Part shown: positions 2,445-27,643 of the stretch, in pieces
How the letters are laid out: each line of letters opens with the position of its first letter
Numbering within the stretch: position 1 is the stretch's first letter
Source: a virus
Taxonomy: Duplodnaviria; Caudoviricetes
Reading direction: 5' to 3' (one strand)
DNA: 27,912 nucleotides
IMG/VR virus record: IMGVR_UViG_3300038492_000245
Coordinates: 1 to 27,912 of that record
The notes under the pieces: model-generated
What the model saw: only the letters and a program-made list of their open reading frames with translations
The model's database searches: none
What the model was told of the DNA's origin: nothing
Program-made: the position numbers and the translations under genes

Positions 2445-4268
2445 TTATCCTACTCTAGTTATCATAATACTTGAATGATTTTGTACTGTATCTATATTTA
2501 CAGCAGCTGTTGTACGCTGCATTCTTACTCTTATTATATCTGTAGCTGTTAATTCTGCTATACAAAATGCAACACTGGTTGATGCTCCAGCTGTTTCTCT
2601 ATGATAGGAATGTCCTCTACTCCCCGTAATCTCTGTGAAAGAACCCCCTCCTAGTGGGTCTTCCTCAATCCAAGCAGCTGTAGATCCCCTAGCATCTCCA
2701 AGTGTATCTGTTATTTCATATACAACTTTTGCCTGTATCATATATGTTCCGGTTGTATTTATTGTTATTTGATCGGAAGATAGCGTATAGTCACTATTAG
2801 TAACCGACTGAGTGTCTATATTAAGAGTTGCTGCTGTTCCATTGATTGTTTGATTTCCTGTTCCATCATATGCAAAGTACGGTGATGCGTCAGGAAAATC
2901 TCGTTTACCAACAACACCTGTGCTGTCTACGACTAATATTTCAGAATCCGTGCTTGATGCTACTCCCCTTATTCGTATTGTCTCTGCTACATCTAACTGC
3001 TCAGTTGGTACATTCCCTAACCCAACATAATTATCATTAGATTCAGAAAGTAAAATAAAAGCATCAGTTTGTCTTACCCCTGAACCGTTTGTTACGTCAA
3101 AAGAAAAATAATTTCCTGCAAAGTTATAATCAACACCTCCAACAAACGTTCCATTGTCGTATATTGTAAAAGGTCTTCCTGACGAATTAGTAGCGTCAAA
3201 CTTAATAAACTCTTGTCCACTTCCTCCAATACTCATTTCAAGCGGCCCGGTCATTGTATCTCCTGCATTTAACACAAATATATCGTCTGTTAATTGCGTC
3301 CCCGACACTGAGTGAGGGTTACTTGTTGACGCTATATGTGTATCAATTTGTGCATGTGTGTTTGTTCCTATATTACTTAAAGCTGTGTGGTCGGTTGTAT
3401 CATTATCTACGTAATTAGTTGCATCTATTGTTCCTGCTCCAGATTGAGTCCAATCTATGTGTTCATTTGCTACGAATCCAAGCAAATTATCGTGGTTAAT
3501 ATTTGCTTCTGCTACATCAATATCGATTTCGTTGTTACCCGTATCATCGGTAATTGTAACCTTACTACTACCAGCGTTTATATTTTTAAACTCGAGATCA
3601 ACCCCAGTCTTTTGTTTGAACACACCAGTTCCTGCTACACCTACATTAGAAGCTGTGTTCGTTTCTCCACCACCGCTTGGTAAGTTTCCTATCTGTACTT
3701 TCTTTTTATTATTAGAATCAGCACTATCCTCTATTATGATCAGGTCTCCACTAACTGGACTCGCTTTTTCGGTAATAAGTGATATTTCTGCGGAAACGTT
3801 ATCGTGAATGGCATCAGGGTCAAAGTTAGTATCTCCGCCTCCTGTGCCAGCACCAGCACCCGCTTCATATGATCTGTAGTTAACAACATGAATGGTATCA
3901 GCGTCTTCTACAAAAATCATAGGATTACTAAAACTAGTATCGTCGGTAAGAGTAGGGTCGTTGATTTCTAACTCCCCAGCTGTTGTCGCACTGGTAAAGT
4001 AATAATTCCCAACAGTTAACCCGTGCCCTGATACCGTATGCTTTCCAATCATTGCCGCTTTGAATTTGTCTGTATTTATTACCTCTACTACGACATACAA
4101 ACCTAATGTATCCTCGTCATCAGCTTGAGCCTTTAACCAATCCGTTCCGTTATGGTAAATAACATCAAGTGCGGCAAATCCATGACCATCTTGAGGCACA
4201 GTTACCGTAGTTTCTGTTTGGGGTGTAGACTGGATATCTTCAAACCCAGCGTAAAGTCTATTAGTCAT
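2445..4268 (-). CDS. Tail fibre / receptor-binding protein
   Basis: 607 aa mosaic; Gly linkers, His-containing fibre repeats (THAQIDTHIASTSNPH), C-terminal C1q/BclA-like beta head (ITINTTGTYMIQAKV...IIRVRMQR). Confidence 0.75.
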   Translation of the reverse strand: MTNRLYAGFEDIQSTPQTETTVTVPQDGHGFAALDVIYHNGTDWLKAQADDEDTLGLYVVVEVINTDKFKAAMIGKHTVSGHGLTVGNYYFTSATTAGELEINDPTLTDDTSFSNPMIFVEDADTIHVVNYRSYEAGAGAGTGGGDTNFDPDAIHDNVSAEISLITEKASPVSGDLIIIEDSADSNNKKKVQIGNLPSGGGETNTASNVGVAGTGVFKQKTGVDLEFKNINAGSSKVTITDDTGNNEIDIDVAEANINHDNLLGFVANEHIDWTQSGAGTIDATNYVDNDTTDHTALSNIGTNTHAQIDTHIASTSNPHSVSGTQLTDDIFVLNAGDTMTGPLEMSIGGSGQEFIKFDATNSSGRPFTIYDNGTFVGGVDYNFAGNYFSFDVTNGSGVRQTDAFILLSESNDNYVGLGNVPTEQLDVAETIRIRGVASSTDSEILVVDSTGVVGKRDFPDASPYFAYDGTGNQTINGTAATLNIDTQSVTNSDYTLSSDQITINTTGTYMIQAKVVYEITDTLGDARGSTAAWIEEDPLGGGSFTEITGSRGHSYHRETAGASTSVAFCIAELTATDIIRVRMQRTTAAVNIDTVQNHSSIMITRVG

Positions 4269-14992: not shown

Positions 14993-16009
14993 TTAAGAAA
15001 CAGTAGTTCCGTCTCCTTTAGATCCTGCAAATCCGATCCAGTTTGTTACACCATATGCGAACTTGTCGTATGCATATTTGATATATACTTGGTTGTCTTT
15101 GTTCAAGTCATCATCGTACTGTTCGTATCCTTCTCCAACGTAAACTTTGAAGAATCTTTGGCAAAGTTCTTTGTCCATTACTCCCCACATTGTATCCCAG
15201 TAGTTACTCGCTGATGTCTTCGCTACTCCACCATGTTCGTTCTCTTGTCGAGCTGCTTCATAAGTGATCCAGTCAATCAAAAGAACATCATACTTGTCCC
15301 CTCGGATGAAGTAGTTAGCATCGTTCTCGTCTGTTCCAGGTTTTTGATCTGGTCCATCTACTCCTGCAATTTGGAACGCTACTTCTTTCTGGTATGGTGA
15401 TGTCCATAGCACTTTATTTCTTCCAGGAGCTCCTGCTGCCATTAGATTACCTGAGTTAGATACGTTTGAGATCAATACATCTTGTAGTTCTGCTACCGCA
15501 TCGTATGATAGTGGTCTTTGCACACCATCTGCGAATGTATTAGATTGGTTTCCTCCTCCGTCTTTTCTTGGGTGAGAAGGTGATACTAGTGGTACTCCGT
15601 CTCCATATGTAACTCCTGAGTCCCAAGCTTTTCTGAAGATTTCGAAAACATGTAGATCTCTTGAGTATTGAACTACTCTTGCGAAATCTTTTGCTCTGTT
15701 TTCTACTTCTTTAGTTTGAGCTGTTTCTAGGAAGTCAGATGAGAATTCTGCTTTCTTTCTGTAAGATCTTCTAGCATATGAGAATTTGTACCCGTCTAGA
15801 GTTTCATCATCTTCTGCATTACCTAGATCTCCTACTTCTTGCATTGGGCTGTACCCTGAGAATGTTTTTTCATTCCACTGTAGCCTGTTAGTTGTACCTA
15901 CATCAAAAACTTGTTCGTATAAACTTTGTGGAAGATTATCCATCTCGTCCATGACATAAGCATCAATTTCAGGTTTCCATACCTCCCAGTTAGCTGTTGT
16001 ATGAGCCAT
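14993..16009 (-). CDS. Major capsid protein (HK97 fold, Mu gpT-like family)
   Basis: 338 aa; YEQVFDV, SGYSPMQEV and GDGVPLVSPSHP motifs; follows the scaffolding and decoration genes. Confidence 0.8.
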   Translation of the reverse strand: MAHTTANWEVWKPEIDAYVMDEMDNLPQSLYEQVFDVGTTNRLQWNEKTFSGYSPMQEVGDLGNAEDDETLDGYKFSYARRSYRKKAEFSSDFLETAQTKEVENRAKDFARVVQYSRDLHVFEIFRKAWDSGVTYGDGVPLVSPSHPRKDGGGNQSNTFADGVQRPLSYDAVAELQDVLISNVSNSGNLMAAGAPGRNKVLWTSPYQKEVAFQIAGVDGPDQKPGTDENDANYFIRGDKYDVLLIDWITYEAARQENEHGGVAKTSASNYWDTMWGVMDKELCQRFFKVYVGEGYEQYDDDLNKDNQVYIKYAYDKFAYGVTNWIGFAGSKGDGTTVS

Positions 16010-16048: not shown

Positions 16049-16717
16049 TTAGTCATTTGCTATTGTTCCAAATGCACTTCTTAGACAAATTACATAAACC
16101 CTATTTGGATTAGTTGGCTTTCTTCCGTCAACCAATATTGTCATGAAATCCTTGTTTTCTAGGTCTTTGTCTGCACTAGATTCTGTTAGTGCAAAGTGGT
16201 ATGTAGTATCTACTGATAGTCCTACACCCATGTTGTCAGATGAGTCTGTTGTCCCAGCCGCTGTAGTTGTTCCTCTTGGTACTGGTGAAGTACTTGCTCC
16301 CCATAGAGATACCTCTAGGATGTCTCCAGGAAAGATAGGTGTAATTACAGCTTGCTCAAGTTTTGCACTTGTAGTATTTGATTCATCATTTGTTGCTGAA
16401 AAAGCATACTTAAGTGGAAGATCTCCTGTTGGTTCTGTTACAGTACCAGCTTTCATATCGTCGTCTTGAAGTGGAACGTTTCCTCCTTGTCGTGTGAATC
16501 CTGATACGAATCCTAAGATTCTATTGTCATCAGCAAAAGCAGGAACTCCGAATTCAATACCATCTAATGTAGCTGCTGCTCCAGTGATTCCAGGAACAAA
16601 ACCTCCAAGGTAAATTTCTGCACTATCTAGTCCAGGTAGTTTTAGAGTTGATCTTTCCCCAGATTTTGCATTTGCAGCTCTTACCAACTTAGGCATATGG
16701 ATTGTTTCGCTTGCCAT
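16049..16717 (-). CDS. Putative capsid decoration/cement protein
   Basis: Between scaffold and capsid genes; G/T/A-rich beta protein; likely start ATG 16717 (MASETIHM) because the longer start lies inside the terminator stem. Confidence 0.5.
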   Translation of the reverse strand: MASETIHMPKLVRAANAKSGERSTLKLPGLDSAEIYLGGFVPGITGAAATLDGIEFGVPAFADDNRILGFVSGFTRQGGNVPLQDDDMKAGTVTEPTGDLPLKYAFSATNDESNTTSAKLEQAVITPIFPGDILEVSLWGASTSPVPRGTTTAAGTTDSSDNMGVGLSVDTTYHFALTESSADKDLENKDFMTILVDGRKPTNPNRVYVICLRSAFGTIAND

Positions 16718-16732: not shown

Positions 16733-16760
16733 AAATAAAAAAGCCATCATTTCTGATGGC
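16733..16760 (-). terminator. Rho-independent terminator
   Basis: GCCATCA-GAAA-TGATGGC-TTTTTTATTT: perfect 7-bp stem, GNRA loop, U-tract. Confidence 0.75.
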
Positions 16761-16786: not shown

Positions 16787-17749
16787 CTATTGTCGTGATG
16801 CTATTGACTTTGCAAAATACTCTGCTTGTTTTGGATTCTTGGCTCGCAGTTCTTCATACTTAGCTTTCTGCTTTGATGTCATTCTCACATTCATAGTAGG
16901 TTGTTCGTTGGTTTGTCCTGTTGTTGGAGTACCACTCACTCCTACCTGATTCCCATACGCTTTATTCTTCCCTATGATTTCTCCTTGTAGTCTAGCCTTC
17001 TTAATTGAATCTTCTTGGTATTCTGGTAATGACTTATATGCTGAAACCAAAGCGTCTGCAAAACTCATATTACCTCTATAAGAGATGGTAACTTGAGCTA
17101 TTGCCATTGCCTCCTCAAGTCTTTGTTTAGCAACTTCGACCTCCTCAACACTCTGCATATTTGCTGGATTTGCCTCTGGCACTTCCTGAATCAATCTATT
17201 GATCGCTTCCTTATTCTGCAGTTTCATGTCAACTTGTTTGTCGACAAGCTCATTAATCTGAGACTGTGTCATGGAAGGACTTCCACTATTGCCACCAACC
17301 GCGTTATTTGGTTGAGTATATAGTTCAGCGTGAGATGGAAGTACATTCCCTGTCTTCTCTTGGTATTGTTTACGGAATTCGTTAAAACTCTTTTCGTCGT
17401 TTACAAACTCGTTATCTAAGGCTTGTGGGTTATATTGTAATAACGTGAACCGCCTTTGATATTCCGCATCCTTGGCTCTCACCGCTGCTTGATTCCTCTC
17501 TTTTTCCAGTGCACTCATCTTATTGATCTCGCGATCAGTAAGTTGAGCTTTTGGTTGTTCCTTCTCGTGCTCAGCCGGAGAATCTTGCTGAGGGGAGGTA
17601 CTACTAGGTACTGTAACATTCTCGCTTCCATCATCGTGCTCTATGTTACCTTGAGGGGATGAGGTTGGAACTGCAACATTTGACGTGCCGTCATCTGATC
17701 CCTGTGGCGCCTCATTGACGGGGGTCTGCTGGTCATTCGCATCTGTCAT
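16787..17749 (-). CDS. Capsid scaffolding protein
   Basis: Acidic disordered N-terminus, coiled coil, basic C-terminal helix pair; between portal and capsid genes. Confidence 0.7.
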   Translation of the reverse strand: MTDANDQQTPVNEAPQGSDDGTSNVAVPTSSPQGNIEHDDGSENVTVPSSTSPQQDSPAEHEKEQPKAQLTDREINKMSALEKERNQAAVRAKDAEYQRRFTLLQYNPQALDNEFVNDEKSFNEFRKQYQEKTGNVLPSHAELYTQPNNAVGGNSGSPSMTQSQINELVDKQVDMKLQNKEAINRLIQEVPEANPANMQSVEEVEVAKQRLEEAMAIAQVTISYRGNMSFADALVSAYKSLPEYQEDSIKKARLQGEIIGKNKAYGNQVGVSGTPTTGQTNEQPTMNVRMTSKQKAKYEELRAKNPKQAEYFAKSIASRQ

Positions 17750-17773
17750 ATTTAGTTTTTAATATTTAACAAC

Positions 17774-17864
17774 AAGTTGTTGTGAACCATTATAAGCAGA
17801 GAGAGCAAACCTACTTACTTCATAATTCACAACAACCTATCATGAAATAAGCGGGCTTGCTCTC
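17774..17864 (-). ncRNA. Candidate cis-regulatory RNA in the scaffolding-gene leader
   Basis: 23-bp stem (17801-17823 with 17842-17864); its loop (17824-17838) is complementary to 17774-17788. Confidence 0.65.
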
Positions 17865-17908
17865 CTCTTACTCACAATAGTAGCAGAACTTCAAAGTAGA
17901 AGTCAATG

Positions 17909-18259
17909 TTATTTTTTGGTCTTTTCTCGGCCTCTTCTAGCTAATTCCTTCTCGGCTTTATCTGGAGCGCTTAAAAGCTCCTTCCCTTCTCTATAGTGAC
18001 CTCTTCGCTCTGATATAACAAGGGCTGCTGTATCAAGATGTAGAGGTTGTAGTTCTAACAGTTTCTTCGCGTGGTGGTTTAGTTTTTCTTCAATGATCTT
18101 TTGGTAGACACCAAATGCCGCACTCTTTTTAAATTCCTTTAAAGCTATTAATTCGTCGTTAGTAAGCTTTGTTGGCCACCCTTTTACTTCAGCGCCAACC
18201 TTCTTTCCTTTCATCAACGAATCTGGGTCTGATATTAAGTTGTAAAGATTATTCGACAT
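17909..18259 (-). CDS. Hypothetical helical protein following the portal
   Basis: 116 aa; a small gene in this slot is common in podovirus-like head modules. Confidence 0.7.
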   Translation of the reverse strand: MSNNLYNLISDPDSLMKGKKVGAEVKGWPTKLTNDELIALKEFKKSAAFGVYQKIIEEKLNHHAKKLLELQPLHLDTAALVISERRGHYREGKELLSAPDKAEKELARRGREKTKK

Positions 18260-18281: not shown

Positions 18282-20762
18282 TTACATAGGACCTGGTCCT
18301 GCCATTGGTGGTGCTCCAGCTGCTGCCATTCCACCCTCTGGAGGTGGGCCTCCTGCTTCTGGTGATGGGCCTCCCCCTGGTCCACCTGGTGGTGGTCCCT
18401 CTGGTCCTGGCATTGGCTCACCTAGAGCAGCTTTACTTTCCATTACTTTGGCTTCTACTGCTTGGTCCTTTGGCATATTATCCTGTAATAAATGTTGTCT
18501 TAGTGCTACAGTTTGTTGTTCAATCTTAGCTCGTTCTTCTTGAAGTGCTGCTAGAGCTTGTCCCATCTCTTCCAACATTCCTACCTGTATTCGTGGGTCT
18601 TGAGCTTGTGTTTGTAATTCTTCTATCTGCTTATTGAATCCTAAGATCTGTGACATCAGGACATTCATTTGGTCTAGATGTCTTCGTTTATGTCTGTTAC
18701 TCTCCCCTGGTTGCCCTGCTAGTTCAGCTGCGTTCTTAGGATCAAGAGCGATTGTTGGGTTCTCTAATGAAGCTTTGATCAATTCGAACTGGAAGTCAGC
18801 ATGAACCTCTTCTTCTTCGCTGTCGTCATCTGGGAACGCTGCAAGTATTTTATCTTTATTAACTAAGCCGAGTTCTTCAATATAACTTCTAGATAGTTCA
18901 ACAAACGCTGTATTCTGTACAAGTACCGGATTCTGGAAGATAGGCATTAGCACTGTCATTGCATCCCTTAGGTTCTGAATCTTAAGTGCTCTACTCACAG
19001 GTACGAGTGTATCCATATCTATCTGGATGTCAACGTCTCCTGTCAAGTTGAAGTATTCACCCTTAACTCCAAAATAACTATCACCTTTAATAACCTTCTC
19101 CATTAATTCACCTGTTCCATCGTCCTCAAGCTCTATTCCTTCAAGTCTAATCTTCTTGTACTCACCTTCTTTTCCTTCTGTAGTAATATCACTTACGTAT
19201 TTTTCACTATAGAACTGTCTCATAAGAGCTATGATTTGTCGGACTGATTCAACATAGCCTTCTTCTGCCCAGTTTCTTATACCCTTCTTAATCATCTTCA
19301 TTGTAGACTCAAGCGACATCATATTGTTTCTCACTGGCTCTCCAGCTTTCGGAACACTGTAAGCTATCGGGTTAATACCGAAAGCCATAATCGCATCTTC
19401 TCTTAGTGTTTCACGCATCTTGTACATCTCAAAATTACCTGCTGGTCCTTCTAGCCACCGTACATTATCCGGTGTTACTGGTCCACTCATTGCAATCTTC
19501 ATATTAGGTTCGATCATATCCCATTGACTATCGATATCTTCTGCGAACTCTGTATTGTACACAAGAGGTGGTGCTATAGATACTCTGATACTTTCAAGTC
19601 TTAGATTTCTTAAAATCTCGTCTTCTAGCTGAAGTGTTTCTAGTACATATGCTGCTCCAATTCCATAGAAGTTATGAGGAATTGGTATTAGCCTATGTCT
19701 AGTAAACGGAAGTTCCTTATGATTATATGGAAGTGGTCCATCCCTTAGTAAGATATCGTTCACTACAATAATATATCTATCTGTAAGCTTATTGTAATAT
19801 CTAATCATCTGTACTTGGCTTGGTCGCCCTCTCAGATCATCTGGACTCTGGAACAATGGTCTAGATGTTTCATCTTGATTCTGAGCATCGCCAATTGATG
19901 TGATCTTTTTAATATTCTTTCTAATAATCCATGGGTCATCGCTACCCTTTAGCTCAGCCACACAGTTATCTAAACTCGGAATAGTTCTCCAAATACAATC
20001 CATCGCTTCATAACTGTCCCCCCTTAGACATCTTGCGTCTGGATCAATAAAGAACTCTTCTAGTGGAACTGCTAAAGAACGAATATCATCAACATCTATG
20101 ATCTCTTGTTTTTCTGTTTGCGGTTTCTTTAGGTTGTCGTTCATCTCCTCTAGTTCTTCAGTTGTCTTACTTTCCAACTCATCGATTGTTGGACCACCTG
20201 TTACTATATCTACCGTTCTCTTTCTTCGAAGATAACCATTATAGGTAATAGCTGTTCCTTTCATCACCACATCCCTCATCGATACCTTTTTATATGCTTT
20301 ATATCCTTGCTTGTTTTCTAAATGCCTTAGAAGTGCTTTTAGTACAAGAACCTTACTCTTATCATCCTCCTCTGTTGGACTAAGTATTACCCCTACCTCG
20401 TTCTCTTGTGCTTCTGCCATGAAAGCTTCCACATTAGAGAATACAATAGGTGACTTTAGGTTACTTCTATTAGGCAAGTATTCATGCCACATAGACCAAA
20501 GCTTGTCATCAAGCCTCCATCTATCCGCCCAATCCCCAAATCCTGAAACATCGTTTGTATCCATCTTTGCTTGCTCACCGGACGAGTCGATAGTAGGAAA
20601 TGGACAACCTGTCCTTCTCCCCGTTTGCATCTCGTTCCATCTATTTAGAATCTCATGAACAGTGTTCATTTCTTTCTTAGAATTCCAAATATGAGGGTAA
20701 GCCTTTGCGTCTAACCCAGACGGATCAACCAACGCTGTTTTCTCTCTTTTGTTTTTACTCAT
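18282..20762 (-). CDS. Portal protein (P22-like)
   Basis: 826 aa after the terminase; EEFFIDPDA, PLPYNHKELPF, FYGIG motifs; C-terminal coiled coil and Pro/Gly tail. Confidence 0.85.
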   Translation of the reverse strand: MSKNKREKTALVDPSGLDAKAYPHIWNSKKEMNTVHEILNRWNEMQTGRRTGCPFPTIDSSGEQAKMDTNDVSGFGDWADRWRLDDKLWSMWHEYLPNRSNLKSPIVFSNVEAFMAEAQENEVGVILSPTEEDDKSKVLVLKALLRHLENKQGYKAYKKVSMRDVVMKGTAITYNGYLRRKRTVDIVTGGPTIDELESKTTEELEEMNDNLKKPQTEKQEIIDVDDIRSLAVPLEEFFIDPDARCLRGDSYEAMDCIWRTIPSLDNCVAELKGSDDPWIIRKNIKKITSIGDAQNQDETSRPLFQSPDDLRGRPSQVQMIRYYNKLTDRYIIVVNDILLRDGPLPYNHKELPFTRHRLIPIPHNFYGIGAAYVLETLQLEDEILRNLRLESIRVSIAPPLVYNTEFAEDIDSQWDMIEPNMKIAMSGPVTPDNVRWLEGPAGNFEMYKMRETLREDAIMAFGINPIAYSVPKAGEPVRNNMMSLESTMKMIKKGIRNWAEEGYVESVRQIIALMRQFYSEKYVSDITTEGKEGEYKKIRLEGIELEDDGTGELMEKVIKGDSYFGVKGEYFNLTGDVDIQIDMDTLVPVSRALKIQNLRDAMTVLMPIFQNPVLVQNTAFVELSRSYIEELGLVNKDKILAAFPDDDSEEEEVHADFQFELIKASLENPTIALDPKNAAELAGQPGESNRHKRRHLDQMNVLMSQILGFNKQIEELQTQAQDPRIQVGMLEEMGQALAALQEERAKIEQQTVALRQHLLQDNMPKDQAVEAKVMESKAALGEPMPGPEGPPPGGPGGGPSPEAGGPPPEGGMAAAGAPPMAGPGPM

Positions 20763-21451
20763 TATTTATTAGTTTCTAAAATAGCGCGCACAATGTCGAG
20801 CTTCTTCATCCCAAATGTATTTATCTCTCTTGATTTAGCAATAGCCCGTAAATTGTTTACGTCCAAATTATTTAAGTCGCTACTTACTACATCCTTTTTA
20901 GGGAGTTCTGTTACTTCTGCTGGTTTCTCTGTTTCTTCTTTTAGGTCTACGCTTCCCAGCCCAGTCTCTGGCTTTGGTAATTCGACCTCTTCTTCTCCCA
21001 CTAATTCGAGAACTCTCCCCAGTGGTCCCTGAAGTAACTGTTGAATCCATCTCTTAGGAACATCTAATTGAATTTCCTCGTCTGGTTTTAGTCTGTAGAA
21101 TCCCATGTTATGACGAGCAAATAGTCTGAATGTTTCCTCACCAAGTCCGTGTCGTTTAATCATTCGAAGTAGTTCGCTTTCTTCGTTAACTTCATGGTGT
21201 CTTTCTTCCCAATAATCTACTGGTAAGTAAGCTGATACATGAACGCTCAACGAATCAATAATTCTGTCAATCGTTGCGAACCTGTCCAAACCTGCTGGGT
21301 TTCCATTCTTGATCTTTTGAGCTGGAATAACTCTGAACTCTTTTCTTTCTGTAGCGACTGTATATAAAGTGTCAGCATCAAGCTCCTCTAACTTCTCGAT
21401 ACTATAATCTTTCTTTATATTATCTAGTCCTTTATTGCGGATAGTGTACAT
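20762..21451 (-). CDS. Hypothetical protein with a C-terminal Rho-N/HeH-like motif
   Basis: LNNLDVNNLRAIAKSREINTFGMKKLDIVRAIL after an acidic linker; likely ATG at 21451. Confidence 0.65.
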   Translation of the reverse strand: MYTIRNKGLDNIKKDYSIEKLEELDADTLYTVATERKEFRVIPAQKIKNGNPAGLDRFATIDRIIDSLSVHVSAYLPVDYWEERHHEVNEESELLRMIKRHGLGEETFRLFARHNMGFYRLKPDEEIQLDVPKRWIQQLLQGPLGRVLELVGEEEVELPKPETGLGSVDLKEETEKPAEVTELPKKDVVSSDLNNLDVNNLRAIAKSREINTFGMKKLDIVRAILETNK

Positions 21452-21472
21452 ATTTTTCACTAAAATAAAAAG

Positions 21473-27034: not shown

Positions 27035-27643
27035 TTAAGCACCATGCCGTTTTTCGGCGTCGTAGTATTCATCTAAGTGTGCATCCAAATCGCTTAATAA
27101 GAATCCCGGCCAGTGTTTTGGTTCAAAGTGTATTTCGGCATGAGCACATTGCTTCATTGCAAAGTCGCTTAATCGTTTATCTCCACCTGTTCTTATTACT
27201 AAATCTATATCAGGGATTCTCTGTGAAAACTCTTTACTACCTGAGTAACCTACGAGATAGTTAACAGAGTCGTATGGTGACACACTATTCTGTTCCATAT
27301 AGTCTACATACCAGTCTATCCCAAACATACTTGATACAGCATTCTCATTACCAATCACTCTAGTTGTGTAACCTTCTTCTTTAGTTCTATCTATGATCTT
27401 TGTTATCAGTTCTTTATATATTTTTAGTTCGTCGTTTGTTCTGTTTATGATGTTCTCATAGGACAACAACCATACAGTTACCATCGGTATCTGATGAGCC
27501 TCTTTTAGATACTTCGTTATGTATAATACGTTTTCTGCCCCAATTTCATAGGCTTCCTTAGGGGTAAAATTTCTCTCTTTAGCATACCTTCGGTTCCCAT
27601 CTGGTATAAGTGCTATATGATTTAGTTTATTACTCTTAGTCAT
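27035..27643 (-). CDS. uppS: cis-prenyltransferase (undecaprenyl diphosphate synthase family)
   Basis: HIALIPDGNRRYA (catalytic Asp and P-loop), LSYENxxNR, GYSG, PDIDLVIRTGGDKRLSDF...QCAHAE, C-terminal RxG (KRHGA). Confidence 0.9.
   Translation of the reverse strand: MTKSNKLNHIALIPDGNRRYAKERNFTPKEAYEIGAENVLYITKYLKEAHQIPMVTVWLLSYENIINRTNDELKIYKELITKIIDRTKEEGYTTRVIGNENAVSSMFGIDWYVDYMEQNSVSPYDSVNYLVGYSGSKEFSQRIPDIDLVIRTGGDKRLSDFAMKQCAHAEIHFEPKHWPGFLLSDLDAHLDEYYDAEKRHGA

Follow-up and report, generated by a model that had tools for sequence, protein, structure and literature searches.

Only in a few cases is the mechanism known by which tailed phages adjust scaffold supply to capsid assembly, and the RNA side of this control is poorly described. 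At T7 gene 1.1/1.2, the cut pattern decides whether the freed strand hides the ribosome site. In the leader of lambda cIII, RNase III stimulates translation, and the alternative folds of the RNA govern the ribosome-binding site and respond to temperature (PMC6524683, PMC5371410). RNase III, which spans 22 bp, accepts long duplexes of broad sequence as substrates (PMC3867540), and the rules that define its sites are loose (PMC1540722, PMC5371410, PMC6212723). In refolding leaders such as those of the tisB, hok and aapA3 toxin mRNAs and of the MS2 maturation gene, it depends on folding order or end-trimming whether a ribosome entry or standby region is accessible (PMC3919570, PMC6733600). Among phage head genes, the scaffolding protein gp8 of P22 is subject to translational autoregulation (Wyckoff and Casjens 1985, as cited in PMC2115188), and the structured RNAs GP20-a (RF02991) and GP20-b (RF03003), together with six further candidate RNAs, precede phage GP20 genes (PMC10690425); these RNAs are not mentioned in the main text of PMC5737381.

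Here we describe a 120-nt leader upstream of a scaffold-like gene in a 27.9-kb phage contig (the window, i.e. the whole stretch of 27,912 nucleotides that was analysed). By analogy, this leader would work most like lambda cIII combined with the processing-dependent refolding leaders. As in cIII, a phage 5' leader has two alternative folds that would bear on initiation and RNase III, but its helices are 28-39 bp long, there is no Shine-Dalgarno sequence (SD), the energy gap between the folds hardly changes between 20 and 37 °C, and the barrier between them suggests a one-way change. With the RNase III sites of T7 and lambda it shares a long irregular hairpin in a phage leader, and the word at the base of this hairpin resembles the start of the weak RNase III consensus (PMC4357697); it differs from them in having a second, mutually exclusive long helix and in a consensus fit that is not significant. 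It resembles the toxin mRNAs and the MS2 leader in its refolding logic, but it comes without an antisense RNA or a toxin, its first fold is predicted to be permissive, and trimming would close it.

Of the two precedents named in the initial annotation, P22 is a precedent for the place, not for the mechanism, while the T4 gene 32 pseudoknot shares complementarity between a loop and a downstream segment of a phage leader; however, the pairing in the window is too long, overlaps the first helix, and precedes a gene that encodes no ssDNA-binding protein. The GP20 RNAs are likewise structured RNAs directly upstream of a phage head-region gene, but the window gives no Rfam match and its scaffold-like gene has no Pfam GP20 match. 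Rfam 15 returned no match at the gathering threshold in the window and eight related loci. In E-value mode (E <= 10), the window gave only seven sub-threshold matches, to miRNA, lncRNA and snoRNA models, and none to GP20-a or GP20-b, so that the comparison with Rfam proposed in the initial annotation gave no family for the element. A literature search returned no description of it. A search by contig identifier in part of the supplementary files of PMC10690425 gave no match, and the leader may be among the 10,006 candidates of that study.

Results

Genomic setting of the leader

The structural genes of the window lie on the - strand, in the order small and large terminase, portal, 116-aa ORF, a 159-nt gap, and the 320-aa, 222-aa and 338-aa genes (Table 1). 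The 338-aa capsid protein gave a model with a pLDDT of 87 that matches HK97-type capsids. The model of the 320-aa protein has an acidic and disordered N-terminus, long helices and a helix-turn-helix at the C-terminus. Its nearest named Atlas cluster is PF09306, flagged as often a chance match, a fold search with the model gave no match at E <= 0.001, and the gene has no significant family match. Because neither family nor fold gave a significant match, the scaffold label rests on position and model, which together make it likely.

Three other features of the contig were recorded. The 232-aa gene at 20762-21460 (-), between terminase and portal, has a weak C-terminal Rho_N match (E 1.6e-4, below the cut-off) and its product is a candidate nucleic-acid binder; genes of the same size at this place in relatives have no Pfam match. 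A cis-prenyltransferase (undecaprenyl diphosphate synthase-like) gene lies at 27035-27643 (-), and the proteins nearest to its product are 23-32% identical, several of them archaeal. A terminator-like hairpin with a U-tail lies at 16743-16760 (-), between the scaffold-like and 222-aa genes, where part of the transcripts could end before the capsid gene.

Table 1. Positions of the genes, predicted promoter elements and leader elements in the window.
Feature	Position	Strand	Remark
Major capsid protein, HK97-type fold	14993..16009	-	structure model and fold match
222-aa conserved gene	16049..16717	-	between scaffold-like and capsid genes
Scaffold-like gene, 320 aa	16787..17749	-	placed between portal and capsid genes; structure model
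Initiation region, A/U-rich, without SD	17750..17769	-	first bases are the outer end of helix B
Helix B 3' strand	17763..17790	-	bases -41 to -14 before the AUG; 17790-17770 in register with L002
Helix A 3' arm	17787..17826	-	core 17826-17801; to 17793 or 17787
Helix B 5' strand	17822..17849	-	17842-17822 in register with L002
Helix A loop, 12 nt	17827..17838	-	central part of helix B 5' strand
Helix A 5' arm	17839..17880	-	core 17864-17839; to 17870 in promoter transcript
Purine word at helix A base	17864..17870	-	UAAGAGG in window, AUAGAGG in relatives
-10 hexamer	17877..17882	-	predicted start about 17870, from spacing
-35 hexamer, sigma-70-type	17901..17906	-	2 nt after stop codon of 116-aa ORF
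Upstream 116-aa ORF	17909..18259	-	
Portal gene, source of read-through transcripts	18282..20762	-	PF23899, phrog_1216

The promoter predicted at 17906-17877 matches 9 of 12 consensus positions and has an extended -10 TG; its predicted +1 coincides with the base of helix A. In 15 of 20 capsid-family loci, the scaffold-like gene has an exact TTGACA and a -10-like hexamer in front of it; these loci are related, and for each the best-scoring site was taken. A promoter scan of the window found no more sites than in shuffled sequence (11 vs 13.0), and the prediction therefore rests on the conserved position.

Two mutually exclusive helices

The initial annotation had paired 17864-17842 with 17823-17801 on the - strand, and the loop segment 17838-17824 with 17788-17774. 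Recounting reproduced both pairings exactly (19 Watson-Crick, three G-U and one A-C in the first; 12 Watson-Crick, 11 of them consecutive, and three G-U in the second), as well as the distance of 24 nt between the downstream segment and the AUG at 17749. Both helices are in fact longer. Helix A extends over 31 bp to 17870/17793 and over 39 bp to 17880/17787, the extension to 17880 being present only in read-through RNA, while helix B covers 28 positions rather than 15, with 21 Watson-Crick pairs, six G-U pairs and one C-U. The 5' strand of helix B is made up of the upper 11 nt of the 5' arm of A, the loop, and the first 5 nt of the 3' arm of A. Because B shares strands with A in this way, the two are alternative folds and not a stable pseudoknot; of the proposed "pseudoknot or two-state switch", the alternation is supported and the stable pseudoknot is not. 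The suspicion that the linker might be too short for both helices was also borne out: it measures 4-5 nt with full-length A and 12 nt if the lower part of A melts.

The structure is exceptional within the contig. The fold of 17740-17915 has a z-score of -7.35, with none of 200 shuffles as good. When 1,390 windows of 125 nt from both strands were compared, the leader came out on top for the best fold (z -6.1 and -5.3; next -3.0) and again for the best alternative fold (z -6.1; next -3.7). When the second fold was obtained by forbidding every pair of the best one, helix A gave -43.4 kcal/mol and the non-overlapping fold, helix B, -38.8 kcal/mol, the latter better than the best fold of 200/200 shuffles. 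Shuffling the 44 nt downstream of helix A reached the observed pairing energy in 0 of 5,000 trials, and shuffling the loop alone reached it in one of 5,000. Elsewhere in the window, no trans partner for the 5' arm or the tail was better than the local ones, and nested co-folding of a loop-tail dimer gained 8-9 kcal/mol via other pairings.

The mRNA strand folds 12-13 kcal/mol better than its complement. Taking the window together with its relative L002, the ratio of G-U to A-C is 14:1 in A and 11:0 in B (p about 0.0005 each); these values are subject to the choice of helix ends, which was made by RNA pairing. The resulting 25 G-U against one A-C on the mRNA strand over two phages are in line with the earlier argument that the G-U bias favours selection at the RNA level.

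Compensatory changes in a relative

In L002, the capsid is 56% identical to that of the window and the leader is identical in 81 of 165 columns. Its helix A has 23 Watson-Crick and six G-U pairs (25-29 bp) around a 20-nt loop, and its helix B 22 Watson-Crick and five G-U pairs. The two folds are nearly equal in energy (-40.2 vs -40.1 kcal/mol), and the second lies beyond 200/200 shuffles. In a structure-blind MAFFT alignment, helix B is in register over 21 pairs, with 41 of the 42 cells paired, compared with 31-60% in slid registers. Between the two phages it shows seven two-sided and four one-sided changes; pairing is preserved at 11 of the 12 variable pairs, for which a composition null gives p = 0.0012 and a transition-biased null p = 0.013. 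In the same alignment the two copies of helix A do not fall into register, each being significant on its own. Of the covariation to which the initial annotation had looked in both helices, compensatory changes in helix B were found, with two sequences only. Among the leaders tested, mutually exclusive folds of similar energy, both kept, occur in these two sequences only. Judged from sequence comparison, the leader is a real, RNA-level, two-state structure, kept in one relative with compensatory changes.

Predicted folding order and possible triggers

Folding of growing prefixes predicts that helix A forms first in both the window and L002. In RNA from the predicted +1, A and B lie within 0-5 kcal/mol of each other, and the nested direct path from A to B costs about 42 kcal/mol; spontaneous exchange is therefore unlikely. 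The state of the 5' end matters: the B-A gap is 9-11.5 kcal/mol in read-through RNA vs 4-6 kcal/mol in the promoter transcript. In the window, B has a probability of 0.01 that rises to 0.91 once 8 nt are lost from the 5' end; in L002, a loss of 4 nt takes it from 0.63 to 0.93. Simulated staggered double cuts favoured B by 3.8-13.0 kcal/mol in the window (six positions) and by 19.1-19.7 kcal/mol in L002 (five positions), and after a double cut the freed top piece prefers pairing with the tail.

Duplex length is compatible with cleavage by RNase III: helix A reaches 31-39 bp in the window and 25-29 bp in L002, and helix B has 28 positions. Against the weak consensus half-site of RNase III (Krinke and Wulff 1990, as quoted in PMC4357697), A scored 13 of 16 in both phages (p = 0.085 and 0.116, not significant) and B 10-11 of 16. 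Scores were 9, 13 and 11 of 16 in L023, L019 and L055, and 12-15 of 16 in 10/10 elements of a more distant clade, which are mutually related and were anchored on the base word. Two relatives fall in Dojkabacteria bins and one distant relative in a bin labelled Gammaproteobacteria. RNase III is encoded in 61/61 genomes searched of the class of the Dojkabacteria bin, a class that may not include the host of this phage.

Two other kinds of control were considered. An RNA thermometer was rejected: the B-A gap is 5.7 kcal/mol at 37 °C and 4.0 at 20 °C in the window, and 0.5 and 0.9 in L002. As regards a terminator or attenuator, no terminator-like site was found at the window leader.

Predicted effect on translation initiation

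A strong SD precedes 3 of the 28 genes in the window, and the scaffold-like gene is without one. Loss of the anti-SD has been described in part of the CPR, not specifically in Dojkabacteria, in PMC9297842. An A/U motif precedes the scaffold genes. Its exact form is present in 8 of 13 loci, in each case at -21 to -24, and these loci have it at no other place. Helix B ends at -14 in the window and at -17 in L002, and covers the first bases of this motif. Opening the region -30..+15 costs 7.7 kcal/mol in the A fold vs 14.5 in the B fold in the window, and 7.7 vs 17.6 in L002. For the narrower region -20..+13, the costs are 3.4 (A) vs 10.2 (B) in L002 and 6.1 vs 5.9 in the window. Because this last cost is not raised by B, repression by B would need a ribosome footprint that reaches to -25 or further. 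By analogy with tisB (PMC3919570), it may act through an upstream entry or standby stretch.

Distribution among relatives

Leaders were available for 28 loci. In seven of them the leader is short or folds weakly; the bistability test was run on the other 21, five of which had been picked by gene position without a scaffold profile match. A strong second fold was found in two of the 21 (the window and L002; z -5.9 and -6.6) and none in 17. As seven of the 28 leaders are this short or weak, the family can do without the element; leaders of 12-21 nt suffice in L003, L021, L033 and L046. Weaker second folds were seen in long leader hairpins of two more distant phages (L053:6758-6882, z -3.4; L064:6511-6675, z -2.8).

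No third carrier of helix B was found when viral, metagenome and genome contigs were searched through the capsid, portal and 222-aa genes, nor in 221 genomes of the class and 401 of the phylum or among GenBank phages; some 50 more closely related capsid proteins lie outside the DNA searched. A pattern built from the shared 3' end matched nine loci, the two known carriers and seven unrelated ones, and a two-sequence covariance model run over 45 sources gave no further carrier. No leader variants were present in two DNA sequencing runs of one study.

In a distant clade (capsids ~34% identical), a long leader hairpin carries the same purine word at its base. Here the word lies within a small hairpin with a short stem, an asymmetric loop, three pairs and a mostly four-base loop. 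It forms in 10 of the 11 pattern matches, and it overlaps the long, U-tailed hairpin at its base. L014 has two copies of the hairpin, both with terminator-like scores, the second of them in front of a tail-fibre-like gene with collagen repeats; the leader hairpin is therefore not scaffold-specific in all members. From its sequence, the distant-clade element looks like a protein-controlled attenuator of late genes, which suggests that structures competing with helix A recur across the family.

Small hairpins of this kind lie after a sigma-70-type promoter at L005:4407, L006:4431, L011:4418, L013:3428, L014:4381, L014:9649, L016:4395, L017:535 and L047:4372, and in L086. In L117:3145-3197 (-; record G224), a variant word and hairpin follow the last gene of an operon and face genes on the opposite strand, a terminator-like position. 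In L005 (4475-4500), L011, L017 and L047, the stretch from the long hairpin to the start codon holds one more small hairpin (internal loop, GNRA-like tetraloop), directly before the A/U motif. In L004, three near-tandem copies of a short self-complementary unit stand immediately 5' of the promoter (4140-4185), and the predicted -10 hexamer is followed after just 2 nt by an ATG; L019:4208-4281 is a single 5'-terminal hairpin leader with an anti-SD-like pyrimidine word directly before the AUG.

The conserved word, which we take to resemble a T7-type polymerase promoter, occurs once per record in 4 of 5 records. It was rejected as such a promoter, PF00940 not being found in five records (two complete), though the control was silent as well.

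Discussion

We ranked the possible functions of the leader. The most likely, which we hold tentatively and at somewhat less than even confidence, is a switch triggered by RNase III processing that lowers translation of the scaffold gene, with trigger and output both inferred. Helix A would fold first during transcription, host RNase III would probably cut it, and the cut would let helix B form in a one-way change. Helix B would then remove the single-stranded U/A-rich stretch upstream of the SD-less start, with likely less scaffold translation as a result. The processed RNA, capped by B, would keep serving the downstream capsid gene, and the scaffold-to-capsid ratio would fall. RNase III is put forward as the trigger because A is a duplex of 25-39 bp, longer than the 22 bp the enzyme spans; a point against it is that B is also long enough to be a substrate. 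Behind this come a switch thrown by a protein and a pure processing or stability device.

It is unlikely, though it ranks second among the explanations, that a protein throws the switch. While the RNA is being transcribed, free scaffold, as in P22, or another phage protein would bind either the purine word at A's base or B's outer, G-U-rich part and so favour B, and scaffold synthesis would fall when procapsid assembly lags. In favour, the sequence of the 5' purine word is conserved against a varying partner strand, the window and L002 share two G-U pairs and one U-G pair of B without change, the word of the distant clade sits in a small asymmetric-loop hairpin that resembles a protein site, and the two folds of L002 are equal in energy. 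However, residues 1-70 of the scaffold-like protein hold 13 D/E vs 2 K/R and the N-terminus is acidic in 7/7 homologues counted, the related hairpin also stands before a tail-fibre-like gene, and the operator-like small hairpin of the distant clade is absent from the predicted transcripts of the window and L002. No feature of the sequence specifically suggests repression by the scaffold-like protein.

Less likely again is that the leader serves processing and stability only. Helix A would be a 5'-terminal stem and RNase III site, scaffold translation would not be switched, and B would be a replacement stem that caps the cut RNA, or would be cut in turn to leave a short leader. This would suit the start of helix A, which lies no more than 5 nt from the predicted +1 in the window, L002, L019, L023 and L055, the relatives with leaders of 12-21 nt, and a helix B that keeps -12..+15 free in both phages and, in the window, also -20..+13; T7 transcripts likewise require maturation by RNase III (PMC3867540). 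It leaves unexplained why B stops almost equally far from the AUG in both phages and overlies the beginning of a motif that is kept before scaffold genes only, and why in L002 it triples the opening cost of -20..+13.

We consider it improbable that A stays in place while its loop pairs with the downstream segment in a pseudoknot, as an operator like that of T4 gene 32. In both phages the loop is complementary to a segment 3' of A, and with the lowest pairs of A melted, the geometry is borderline for a loop-tail pairing of 7-8 bp, which could occur as an intermediate. But A and B cannot fully coexist, because the in-register, conserved part of B takes bases from both arms of A. From the textbook rise per base pair and reach per base, about 10-15 nt are needed to span 23-33 bp; the linker of the window, at 4-5 nt (12 nt if the lower part of A melts), and that of L002, at 7 nt for 25 bp of A, compare poorly with this, and a loop pairing of more than one turn would need the mRNA to be threaded.

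No better placed is the proposal that the 5' end alone decides, read-through or the first start giving A and a start a few bases downstream giving B, with no nuclease or protein involved. The lowest extension of A, present only in read-through RNA, competes with the inner end of B; the larger B-A gap in read-through RNA and the response of L002 to a 4-nt shift agree with it. Yet the window needs 8 nt less, which is beyond the usual spread of start sites, no second promoter was found at the window leader, and A folds first either way. Least probable of all, and already disfavoured, are inverted repeats without an RNA function, at the DNA level or by accident (a cruciform or a template-switch duplication): A's upper 3' arm does resemble the end of the 3' strand of B, as after a duplication, but the G-U bias on the mRNA strand and the seven two-sided changes in B argue against them.

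Should the processing-triggered switch be correct, a wider reading, which we regard as doubtful, would see the leader as a one-way, factor-free timer made of RNA, which paces capsid assembly in phages infecting small-genome (CPR) bacteria. The freed loop would be a built-in antisense strand that closes an SD-less entry region and caps the head-gene mRNA, by which the ratio of scaffold to capsid would be fixed. The same hairpin and base word would be wired to different rivals across the family, namely helix B here and the upstream operator-like hairpin with its U-tail in the distant clade. The design is small, 120 nt holding two long exclusive helices, a predicted folding order and a predicted trigger. 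If true, it would mean that translation can be tuned without a Shine-Dalgarno sequence, by closing a stretch 14-41 nt upstream of the AUG.
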